64,000 bases of DNA from Alloacidobacterium sp. (GTDB lineage: Bacteria; Acidobacteriota; Terriglobia; Terriglobales; Acidobacteriaceae). Position 1 is the stretch's first letter, and the number at the start of each line of letters is the position of its first letter. This document shows, piece after piece, positions 6,162 through 8,603 of this stretch. A program made the translations under genes and the position numbers. The stretch lies in contig NZ_DASQIX010000001.1 of assembly GCF_035631355.1 (NCBI RefSeq), positions 17,011 to 81,010 on the forward strand, read 5' to 3'. The notes below the pieces were generated by a model. The model had not been told where the DNA came from, searched no databases, and worked only from the letters and a program-made list of their open reading frames with translations.

Positions 6162-8603
6162 GTGGCTACCGATCAACAGCTTGCAACTCTTTATTCGCAA
6201 CTTCGCGCGGCGTTTCTCTCCCGTCATTTTGCAATCGGACGATACTTCAGGAGAAACTTCTTCTCTCAGCAAAATCAGTTGAATACAAACCTCAAGACGA
6301 GCGATCTGCTGGCTCAGAGCGAAACCGATCAGCAACTTACTCGGTGGAACTGCATTCGCAATCCCCCGGAAAATGACAACCCTTTGTTGACGGGATCGAT
6401 GTTCTTGGCCTGCCTGGCAGTTGAAGACGCTATTGGACACCCGCACGCGCCGAGAATTCTGCATTCGGCAGTTGCGACCTTCAAGTCCCTTTACAAATCC
6501 AGCGGCAATCATTTCGACGGTTATCCCATGCGATGGGATCCGACATGCTCGGATCGTTGGTTGTTAGCAGGTTCATCACCGCTGGCCTCTGACGAGTTTC
6601 TGATTGAAAATGGCAACTACCTCTATTGCAGTCCATCCACAGACCCAAGACATTGGCCGCTGCGCAACCGCGATACGTTGGTCAATCTGATGGGCGAACA
6701 AGAAACGCAGCGTTATATCAAGGCGAATGGAACCGACCTGGGTGATGAGCGATGGGGATATTTTGATCGCTATCGCCGATGGGAGTTGTCGATGGATGAA
6801 TTAGTGGGCCTGGTAACCACTTACTTCATCATCAACAAACTTTGCACATCGGCCGGAACGCGCATGGAAGTAGTTCGGCAGGCTAACAATCTCGGCGACT
6901 ACCTGGCCGAGCATAGTTGGTTGCTGGTACGTCCAGTCGGAGGTTTGAATGCAAGGGGCGCCACCGGTATTCTTCCGGCGCTTGAATTTCCATTAGGTCG
7001 CGCCCTGCAAAGTATTACTGGCAATAGCTACGCAGCCCGCACAGACTTTGCCGGTGCAATGAAACAAGCCGGATACTGGAATTGCCTATCTGATCCATTA
7101 ACGCTCTGGACGGTAGCCGGCGCCGTTGCCGCCCCGGTGATTGCTCCGATGCTGACAGGCGTCATTGCTTCTCTCGGAATTTTTGCTTTCATTCCCGAAT
7201 CCGTACCTCTGGCTGGAATCGCTTTGCCTGTCGCAGGGATTCCTGCATCAATTCTCTCGGTCGCTGTTCCGGTTGCTTCCGTGCCTATGGCCCGTACCTA
7301 CGCGGTCTATCAATCTCGCGGCTGTTTCGACGTAAAGGATGACCCCGCTGCTCAAGAAGTAGCGATATCGTTGTTTCTTAAAGAGAACATCCCGCTGGCC
7401 ACTCGTTTTCAAGGCTGGATATTTGCGTGTGGGTTCACAGGAGGAAAAACAGGCGCATGGTCGGCCGCCTTTCCACCCTACTTTGCGCTGACGGCGCTCG
7501 ATGACCCTGACACAACAGTTCGCGATGCGTATCTTGGCTGGCTGGCAGAGCGCCACAAACATACTAATCTTGAACCTTCCGATCATCCGATTGCTGAAGG
7601 TTGTTTTGCGAGTGCAGTAGCCGTCTTGCTTGGTGCCGGCGCAACAGAAGAAGCACGTCTGAAGTCGCTGCTCGATCAGAAGTTCACATCGCTGGCCAAT
7701 GCATTTGTAAATGACATTCCGGTGGTGGATGGCAATGGTGTGATCGATGAAATCTATCCCCAAGCTATCGATTACCAGGTTGGCTTGGCGCTGGCCTGGC
7801 TGCACGCAAAACGACGTTCAGATGCTGGGAATCCGGTAACAACAGCTGGTTTCCCGGCATTACCGAGCAATATTCTTTTCTGGCCTGTGCCCGCTGTTCC
7901 GGCAAATGTTGTCCAAAGCATGCAGGCGGGCCAACTCACTCTTCCAATTACAGCCATTCAGGACACGGCGACACCAACAGTCTTTTCTTATGGTGCTGAG
8001 CTATTCTCCACTGAGAATTCACCGCAAAAGCCTGATGTTCCGGCACCTGTATTTCCTTCGACACCCGCCCGGATGGTGATCGACAGAACTGTCACCGTCC
8101 ACCAATCCGATGGCGACGTTAACACGGGCATCGTCCTCAACAACGGAGATGACTATGAGATTTTCGCAGCAGGATCAATTTGGGCGGGAGACGTATTGCA
8201 TGGCAACAATGGCCCTGATGGCTGGAACGACGTACAGTGGGACAGCACATGGCCCCTCTTCGGATCACTCGATCCAATCAATGCTCACTCCAACTGCCTA
8301 TTAGGGCGCCTCGGAGGGTACTTCTTCATCGGATCGTCGCGTCCCAGGGGTCGTTTTCTTTATAGTGGGCCTTGTCCGTTATGGTTACGCATCAATAGCA
8401 AGAATCCGGGAAGCGGAAACGGATCGTTTCAGGTGCGGGTTCAGGTCTGGAGTTCGCTTGACCAGAGCCTCCGCAAGCAGTTGGCAGCACATTCTTTGGC
8501 TGTCGCAAGTGTCGGCGCCCTTGCTCAAAAGCTGGGGCAGAATTGGCCCCCACCACCAACATTGTCACTGCGTCAGTTGGAATTACAGCTATCGAATAGT
8601 TGA
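6162..8603 (+). CDS. Hypothetical 813-aa multidomain protein: six-hairpin-glycosidase-like barrel, hydrophobic insertion, LecA/PA-IL-like lectin domain
   Basis: Long open frame with GAGGAGG SD before the GTG start. Motifs DNPLLTGSMFLA, GYPMR, WELSMDELVG; uncharged stretch at aa 313-377; C-terminal TGIVLNNGD.YEIFAAGSIWAG..GPDG..LLGRLG..LRIN..GSGNGSFQVRV. Confidence 0.65.
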   Translation: MATDQQLATLYSQLRAAFLSRHFAIGRYFRRNFFSQQNQLNTNLKTSDLLAQSETDQQLTRWNCIRNPPENDNPLLTGSMFLACLAVEDAIGHPHAPRILHSAVATFKSLYKSSGNHFDGYPMRWDPTCSDRWLLAGSSPLASDEFLIENGNYLYCSPSTDPRHWPLRNRDTLVNLMGEQETQRYIKANGTDLGDERWGYFDRYRRWELSMDELVGLVTTYFIINKLCTSAGTRMEVVRQANNLGDYLAEHSWLLVRPVGGLNARGATGILPALEFPLGRALQSITGNSYAARTDFAGAMKQAGYWNCLSDPLTLWTVAGAVAAPVIAPMLTGVIASLGIFAFIPESVPLAGIALPVAGIPASILSVAVPVASVPMARTYAVYQSRGCFDVKDDPAAQEVAISLFLKENIPLATRFQGWIFACGFTGGKTGAWSAAFPPYFALTALDDPDTTVRDAYLGWLAERHKHTNLEPSDHPIAEGCFASAVAVLLGAGATEEARLKSLLDQKFTSLANAFVNDIPVVDGNGVIDEIYPQAIDYQVGLALAWLHAKRRSDAGNPVTTAGFPALPSNILFWPVPAVPANVVQSMQAGQLTLPITAIQDTATPTVFSYGAELFSTENSPQKPDVPAPVFPSTPARMVIDRTVTVHQSDGDVNTGIVLNNGDDYEIFAAGSIWAGDVLHGNNGPDGWNDVQWDSTWPLFGSLDPINAHSNCLLGRLGGYFFIGSSRPRGRFLYSGPCPLWLRINSKNPGSGNGSFQVRVQVWSSLDQSLRKQLAAHSLAVASVGALAQKLGQNWPPPPTLSLRQLELQLSNS

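Follow-up and report, generated by a model that had tools for sequence, protein, structure and literature searches.

What would a long, almost uncharged stretch of residues be doing in the middle of a large bacterial protein that otherwise resembles a soluble enzyme? The question is raised by a gene in a 64,000-nucleotide stretch of DNA from Alloacidobacterium sp. (assembly GCF_035631355.1, contig NZ_DASQIX010000001.1, positions 17,011 to 81,010 of the forward strand), referred to below as the window. An earlier reading, made from the sequence alone, had proposed an (alpha/alpha)6-like barrel interrupted by a hydrophobic hairpin of the kind seen in the translocation or pore-forming segments of toxins. 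We have found that the protein consists of three parts, namely an orphan helical module at its N-terminus (the N-module), a hydrophobic excursion within this module, and a C-terminal LecA-type domain. The last of these was missed by the sequence-only reading, and its presence changes the picture. We tentatively suggest an enzyme-like effector that is guided by glycans and acts at the membrane surface, a proposal that we would still place well below an even chance.

Layout of the protein

The complete protein was modelled with AlphaFold2 from an alignment of 60 sequences, and its first 636 amino acids (aa), which make up the N-module, from an alignment of 76. The full-length model had a mean predicted local distance difference test score (pLDDT) of 90.8 and a predicted template modelling score (pTM) of 0.90, while the N-module on its own reached 92.9 and 0.94. 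In the model the N-module is all-alpha except for small beta excursions and holds about 13 long helices.

When the full-length model was compared with the Protein Data Bank (PDB) using Foldseek, significant structural matches were obtained for the C-terminal domain only. This domain (aa ~637-766) matched LecA (1l7l) with a target-normalised template modelling score (TMt) of 0.81, an E-value (E) of 5.8e-4 and a root-mean-square deviation of 2.4. Further lectin matches were 2vxj, 4cp9, PllA (5ofz and 5odu) and the N-domain of EclA (6ygq), with TMt of 0.67-0.81 and E of 4e-4 to 3e-3. A profile of the domain run against PDB sequences gave marginal matches, headed by PllA (E 0.025) and LecA (0.09-0.76), with all top matches belonging to the PA-IL family. 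Searching the PDB sequences with the family profile likewise gave only a marginal match of the lectin part to PllA, and the Pfam PA-IL model did not match the 813-aa protein. In the full-length model the domain adopts a LecA-type beta-sandwich.

In the sequence-only reading the gene had been ended at 8075, and the whole C-terminal domain was thereby cut off. The list of open reading frames (ORFs) and the translation show that the frame continues to 8603, with the stop codon at 8601-8603. The GTG at 6162 is preceded, 7 nt upstream, by a strong Shine-Dalgarno sequence (GAGGAGGA), and this start is sound since close homologues begin with the same MA(S/T)DQQ..LY. An identical 813-aa product is already present among database records (P0003). 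No signal peptide was visible on inspection of the N-terminus, and the description of the protein as signal-less was borne out.

The sandwich is followed by a tail in which pLDDT falls below 50 for aa 769-784 and 794-813. This tail of 47 aa ('SLRKQLAAHSLAVASVGALAQKLGQNWPPPPTLSLRQLELQLSNS', window 8460-8600) is common to two relatives, P0004 and P0006, and it stands in the position that is occupied by a DUF3892 domain in 20 of 57 relatives. Pfam found no DUF3892 in the window protein.

The helical module and its hydrophobic excursion

Four motifs had been singled out in the N-module, DNPLLTGSMFLA (aa 72-83), GYPMRW (120-125), WELSMDELVG (207-216) and LGDYLAEHSWLL (244-255), and all were recovered. 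Their conservation was taken from three family alignments (A2, A3 and A4). It is these motifs that hold invariant or near-invariant polar residues, namely N73, E88, R124, D126, E208, S210, D212 and E213. Across pairwise identities of 27-40%, N73, R124, S210, E213 and G261 are invariant, and E88, D126, E208, D212, R257, E275 and D390 are at least 90% conserved; further conserved aromatic residues are W62, Y153, Y247 and W546. Since polar residues stay invariant at such identities, their conservation would argue for a catalytic or ligand-binding centre and not a mere scaffold. This putative polar centre comprises N73, E88, R124, D126, E208, S210, D212, E213, R257, E275 and D390. The candidate catalytic centre is the motif RxWExSxDExxGL, which stands at the N-terminal end of helix 211-227. 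The module is most likely an enzyme.

Helices of low column entropy (74-90, 211-227, 271-286, 481-489 and 533-554) alternate with helices of high entropy (96-109, 231-250, 412-423 and 494-514), and the invariant or near-invariant polar residues N73, E208/S210/D212/E213, G266/E275, D390 and D447/D448 directly precede low-entropy helices, with conserved polar residues at the N-terminal ends of 74-90, 211-227 and 271-286. Such an alternation would fit the inner and outer helices of a barrel, and the placing of polar residues just before the low-entropy helices would also fit a toroid.

The hydrophobic stretch was confirmed as 65 residues (aa 313-377) with E346 as their sole charge, which is unusual in a soluble protein. 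All 19-residue Kyte-Doolittle windows across it score at least 1.6, with a peak of 2.26, and elsewhere in the protein a single window (aa 477-495) reaches 1.6. Given the composition alone, one charge or fewer in 65 residues has a probability of 1.6e-4 per window, or about 0.12 after correction for the number of windows, so that the uncharged stretch of a single sequence is only suggestive. The feature is nevertheless real, because a transmembrane-like window recurs at the same place in 62 of 76 homologues. In all 76 a segment of 56-102 aa lies between the conserved W306 and F389-D390, with two or more such windows in 25, one in 37 and none in 14. It is thus not a lineage-specific insert. The clade-specific part is confined to aa 339-361, columns that are occupied in 36% of the homologues, in this and some other clades.

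It had also been asked whether the stretch is an ordinary core helix found in all homologues. Its position is universal, but a conserved core helix it is not, as both length and sequence vary. Family-wide, the charged fraction at aa 323-372 is 4-8% against about 20% elsewhere, and column entropy is 2.3-3.1, whereas core helix 481-489 is equally hydrophobic yet conserved (entropy 1.74). The model places helices at aa 306-322 (17 aa) and 324-338 (15 aa), followed by mostly coil at aa 339-372, and pLDDT drops from more than 90 in the flanks to 55-80 in the segment (55-77 for aa 339-372). The proposed hydrophobic hairpin therefore holds for aa 306-338 only, the rest being mostly coil in a segment with eight prolines. 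Because hydrophobicity is kept while sequence is lost, indels of 20 residues are tolerated and conserved motifs lie on both sides, the segment seems to behave like a peripheral element facing lipid, a hydrophobic ligand or a partner, unlike a packed core helix. The short helices, the richness in proline and the position within one compact domain argue against a bilayer-spanning element and favour a lid or an element that dips into the membrane or is re-entrant.

The fold of the N-module is less easily named. Searches of the protein against Pfam, NCBIfam, PHROG, PADLOC and PDB sequences gave nothing for this module, and at Pfam E-values up to 1 it matched no family, six-hairpin families included, in any of 57 members. 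A Foldseek comparison of its model with the PDB found no significant neighbour (best E 0.18, probability at most 0.18, template modelling score (TM) at most 0.36), and a fold search of BFVD gave no match. A hidden Markov model of the module, run against all ORFs of its own genome, where genes of GH127, GH88 and squalene-hopene cyclase (SHC) are present, found only itself. Profiles of GH125, GH127, GH88 and SHC built from genomes of the phylum were aligned to it with hhalign and all gave probabilities below 1% (SHC 0.4%), a test of low power that is uninformative on fold, as genuine toroid families mostly miss one another in it and only the pair GH127-GH88 reaches 52%. The N-module falls under no described family.

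The sub-threshold Foldseek matches of highest probability were a polysaccharide lyase (PL; 5no8), the LanC-like 8car (CuvL), GH127 (7exv), GH125 (3qpf and 3p2c), GH88 (3wiw) and AGE (1fp3), and a complement TED domain was also among the weak matches of (alpha/alpha)6 type. About 11 of the top 50 weak matches are toroid proteins, the remainder being solenoids (importins, 14-3-3, TPR), and toroid enzymes are enriched solely among these sub-threshold matches. Of the barrel put forward in the sequence-only reading, the all-alpha character stands, while the toroid was neither confirmed nor excluded. The suggested check with AlphaFold and Foldseek did return a confident all-alpha model but, even at a pLDDT of 92.9, no significant barrel match. 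That the N-module is a toroid of (alpha/alpha)6 type is a possibility to which we give somewhat less than an even chance.

Table 1. Features of the gene and its product, with the gene directly upstream (positions in the window)
Feature	Position	Strand	Basis or remark
Fibre-like repeat protein, 43 bp upstream of target gene	5039..6118	+	Same pair at L006
Shine-Dalgarno-like GAGGAGGA	6147..6154	+	Read from sequence; spacing to GTG 7 nt
Complete coding sequence, 813 aa	6162..8603	+	ORF list and translation
Orphan all-alpha N-module, aa 1-636, including Pro-rich wrap aa ~555-636	6162..8069	+	AlphaFold2; fold and family searches
Motif (D/E)NPL...LAVE..LG, aa 72-92	6375..6437	+	N73 invariant; P74, E88, G92 at least 90% conserved
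Motif GYxxRWDP, aa 120-127	6519..6542	+	R124 invariant; G120, D126 at least 90% conserved
Motif RxWExSxDExxGL, aa 205-217	6774..6812	+	S210, E213 invariant; E208, D212, G216 at least 90% conserved
Motif LGDYLAEHxYLLVRPxGG, aa 244-261	6891..6944	+	G261 invariant; Y247, R257, P258, G260 at least 90% conserved
Variable hydrophobic excursion, aa 306-390; uncharged core aa 313-377 = 7098-7292	7077..7331	+	Kyte-Doolittle 19-residue windows, homologue alignment, pLDDT
Pro/Ala/Val/Gly-rich sub-insert, aa 339-361	7176..7244	+	Column occupancy 0.36 (76 homologues); coil, pLDDT 55-61
LecA/PA-IL-type beta-sandwich lectin domain, aa ~637-766	8070..8459	+	Foldseek, domain profile
C-terminal tail, 47 aa, low confidence; stop codon included	8460..8603	+	pLDDT

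Distribution, partner modules and neighbourhood

Thirty-six relatives turned up when 5.8 billion proteins were searched by word index, and an exhaustive phmmer search of 1.84 billion cluster representatives gave 434 matches at E of 1e-3 or less, 145 of them at 1e-30 or less. A profile made from the most divergent members recovered the same family only, with all matches at E below 1e-47 and nothing from there to 0.01. Because that profile finds nothing beyond this set, the family is a small isolated island in sequence space. Its members are recorded as 'hypothetical', 'DUF3892 domain-containing' or 'LGFP repeat-containing', and their hosts include Thiobacillaceae, Myxococcaceae, Chloroflexi/Anaerolineales, Kribbella, Micrococcaceae, Methylomirabilota, a deltaproteobacterium and a Methylomonas plasmid. 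Many phyla are represented. The N-module is conserved, its invariant polar residues included, across at least seven bacterial lineages and is nearly absent from reference genomes. A pattern scan of the genome collection found 4 loci only, and the gene was found neither in 300 sampled genomes of the window's class nor in the 40 nearest relatives, 11 of which are of the same genus.

Around the N-module the relatives differ. DUF3892 is fused to it in 20 of 57 members and an NBR1-type immunoglobulin-like (Ig) domain in 6 of 57, and PASTA (E 1e-12 and 1e-9), LGFP repeats (up to 1e-32), ASH/DUF1573-type Ig, a weak C2-like domain, DUF7910 and one twin-arginine translocation (TAT) signal were also seen. 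In these arrangements the helical module is constant, with binding modules exchanged around it. In the distant members P0036, P0098 and P0104 about 100 aa of C2-like sequence ('..CYLKIRVDG..WDEDTPDDDDFLGEATI..') are inserted after the first helix, ahead of the NPL motif, and P0098 additionally carries DUF7910 and a C-terminal PASTA domain. The sole member seen with the TAT signal (SRRSFLKG..) is P0035 (L023 7001-9541), whose hydrophobic segment is broken by a charged insert of about 25 aa and from which the LecA-like domain is absent.

In nine genomic contexts there was no common neighbour, and no secretion, immunity or lysis gene recurred. Several of these loci adjoin transposases, and one is found on a conjugative plasmid, next to toxin-antitoxin genes. 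The plasmid member, P0029 (L007 8001-11234), is carried on a 193-kb Methylomonas plasmid with TraI, TraG and MobI, where it adjoins a ParE/Phd toxin-antitoxin pair and a HxsD/radical-SAM cluster. At the window itself, synteny with a genome of the same genus (G306, 72% nucleotide identity) breaks at about 4609, and the region of lowest GC content, positions 4600-5200 (0.47 against about 0.57 for the whole window), coincides with this break, which lies directly before the low-GC stretch that precedes the fibre gene. No clean empty site was found in the relatives, only the break in synteny. Because the gene is absent from related genomes and the break precedes a low-GC stretch, it is an accessory gene that was moved horizontally. 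PADLOC gave no match for the protein, its neighbour or three relatives.

The gene directly upstream codes for a fibre-like repeat protein. Both genes are also paired at the locus of the closest relative (L006, 70% identity), where the fibre proteins are 56% identical. The two genes are possibly co-transcribed, a link that would be only local. The fibre gene is missing from the 8 other contexts, in which the neighbours are unrelated, and its product has more than 4300 homologues, which carry no functional name. As an obligatory partner it was rejected, because the pair occurs only with the closest relative and the fibre family is huge. Given this and the lack of a conserved neighbour in nine contexts, the target protein must work on its own. 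The fibre protein contains the N-terminal motif 'TWELSGN..FLGTTD..ERMRID.SGNVGVGT', 10-residue triplet repeats and a conserved C-terminal domain ('GADCAEHFDV...ALVGKVYCKVDA'). It matched nothing in Pfam or NCBIfam and gave only a weak PHROG match to tail fibres.

Downstream, at 9291-9716 on the minus strand, an ORF of 141 aa matches only the last ~125 of the 469 positions of the RPE65/carotenoid oxygenase model (E 6.5e-29). This ORF resembles a truncated remnant beside the cassette, as only about 560 bp are left before the GH31 gene.

Competing readings and known systems

How might the three parts work together? In the mechanism that we tentatively favour, the LecA-type domain, or in relatives PASTA, LGFP or Ig, would anchor the protein to a sugar-bearing envelope. 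The hydrophobic excursion would dip into the membrane or cover a lipid tail or substrate, most likely without crossing the membrane, and the catalytic centre would thereby work at the membrane surface in a monotopic or interfacial manner. The conserved polar centre beside the excursion might then act on a glycolipid or a lipid-linked glycan. The helical module would be the constant 'warhead', and the binding modules would aim it. The domain layout, the pattern of conservation, the variable hydrophobic segment kept family-wide, the lectin fold, the sporadic distribution and the lack of partner genes have been observed; an enzymatic activity, the membrane contact and this class of substrate are what we infer. 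A constant module, swapped binders, a greasy excursion kept family-wide and stand-alone mobile genes are the signature of an effector of inter-organism conflict. It is also conceivable, although we consider it unlikely, that the helical module represents both a new fold and a new enzyme class, in which a warhead with a membrane-dipping hairpin by its active site is aimed by glycan or cell-wall binders at the envelope of other cells and there attacks a glycolipid or a lipid-linked glycan.

Several points weigh against a glycan-guided effector at the membrane surface. The segment is much less hydrophobic in 14 of the 76 homologues, and membrane insertion is therefore not obligatory for the family. 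In the window's own copy, half of the segment with its eight prolines is modelled as coil. Most members are without an export signal, yet PASTA, LGFP and the TAT signal point to a place outside the cytoplasm. The lectin domain raises a further doubt. The family consensus INDDxPGNG, in which the D and N positions are presumably the Ca2+ and galactose ligands of LecA, reads INSKNPGSG in the window clade. In a low-scoring alignment with PllA the consensus keeps D and N at the aligned places, where the window clade has S, K and S for D, D and N. Provisionally, this clade appears to have lost the acidic and asparagine positions aligned to the ligands of PllA and LecA, and since INSKNPGSG replaces INDDxPGNG, a LecA-like, Ca2+-dependent binding of galactosides by this copy is doubtful. 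That the conserved residues cluster, and that the hydrophobic segment lies beside them, is deduced only from their order along the chain.

The reading that survives best beside the glycan-guided effector is a diverged, soluble (alpha/alpha)6 glycosidase or lyase with a lectin resembling a carbohydrate-binding module (CBM), in which the segment would form a lid or an interface between subunits and would play no part at a membrane. The conserved carboxylates (E88, D126, E208, D212, E213, E275 and D390) and aromatics (W62, Y153, Y247 and W546) would suit a carbohydrate-active enzyme (CAZyme), as would the alternation of conserved and variable helices and the toroid enzymes among the weak Foldseek matches of highest probability. 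None of those fold matches is significant, however, six-hairpin Pfam families were found in none of the 57 members, and profile searching recovered the family itself only. A lectin or CBM tail is frequent in CAZymes, 14 of the 76 members have a segment that is not transmembrane-like, and the tetrameric state of LecA makes an interface role conceivable; an uncharged, poorly conserved and indel-tolerant stretch of 40-65 residues would still be odd for a lid or interface. A context of polysaccharide utilisation or transport was seen at none of nine loci, and the extremely sporadic occurrence would be unusual in a metabolic enzyme. We regard the soluble enzyme as doubtful.

A lectin-targeted toxin that forms pores or translocates, releasing a buried hairpin into the target membrane in the style of colicins or the diphtheria T domain, was the idea behind the sequence-only reading. 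A large, soluble, signal-less protein with an extreme hydrophobic stretch and a receptor-binding lectin does have this appearance, and one member, with weak glycine-zipper Pfam matches in the segment region, has a glycine-zipper-like composition that might suit a pore. Among the PDB matches of both models, however, there was no structural likeness to a colicin, to diphtheria T or to any other pore-former. The two helices of the hairpin span just 17 and 15 aa, with a Pro-rich coil as remainder, transmembrane-like hydrophobicity is missing in 14 of the 76 members, and AlphaFold2 puts the segment within one compact domain amid conserved motifs, with no separate T domain. Exchange of binding modules as in toxins, and an accessory, mobile distribution, would agree with a toxin, while the invariant polar residues favour catalysis over pore formation. 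Secretion, lysis and immunity genes were not nearby in the nine contexts, although the absence of an immunity gene would fit a non-kin target. On balance a pore-forming toxin seems distinctly improbable.

According to a preprint (10.1101/2025.01.14.632903), DUF3892 typically occurs in fusion with signal-less Min-Wnt effectors, for which an intracellular action on lipid carriers has been proposed. A corresponding reading here, in which an abortive-infection-type effector attacks lipid-linked envelope precursors at the inner leaflet of the cytoplasmic membrane with DUF3892 as the sensor in relatives, would agree with the lack of export signals in most members, with DUF3892 in 20 of 57 and with sporadic, stand-alone genes associated with mobile elements, but it is very unlikely, as PADLOC gave no match, the window copy is without DUF3892, the PASTA, LGFP, TAT and lectin modules indicate an extracytoplasmic site, and the sensor role of DUF3892 is itself only proposed. 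A link to the Lipocone or Min-Wnt proteins through DUF3892 was rejected; Min-Wnt is a domain of about 110 aa with a sNxxGR motif, and nothing ties it to the N-module.

Should an activity be found, the protein would stand for a new class of enzyme or toxin and for a new use of the LecA fold. Otherwise it represents a well-delimited 'dark' family, confidently modelled yet unmatched in structure, which is worth structure determination.

Four known systems invite comparison. Like the six-hairpin glycosidases and lyases (GH125, GH127, GH88, the PL BACCELL_00875 and AGE), the N-module is all-alpha, of similar size and built of about 13 long helices, with carboxylates at helix N-termini and an alternation of conserved and variable helices, and it is to these families that the best sub-threshold fold matches belong. 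Unlike them, it carries an uncharged excursion of 60-100 aa, found in none of those families, and the structural and sequence matches are not significant (E at least 0.18, TM at most 0.36). With A-T-B toxins, such as those with the colicin pore domain or the diphtheria T domain, the protein shares a soluble, signal-less nature, a hydrophobic hairpin and a receptor-binding domain, but the fold is not similar, the hairpin is placed inside an enzyme-like module, and immunity and lysis genes are lacking. Monotopic membrane enzymes such as SHC have a hydrophobic element that dips into the membrane. The likeness to SHC is functional only, since SHC and oxidosqualene cyclase are absent from the fold matches and hhalign gave 0.4%, and it consists in a large helical fold of soluble type that lacks transmembrane topology and has a non-polar element near the place where the substrate presumably enters. 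The galactophilic lectins LecA (PA-IL), PllA and EclA-N have the same beta-sandwich and, like the window protein, no signal peptide. LecA is a stand-alone, tetrameric lectin of 12 kDa, whereas here the sandwich forms the C-terminal domain of a protein of 813 aa.

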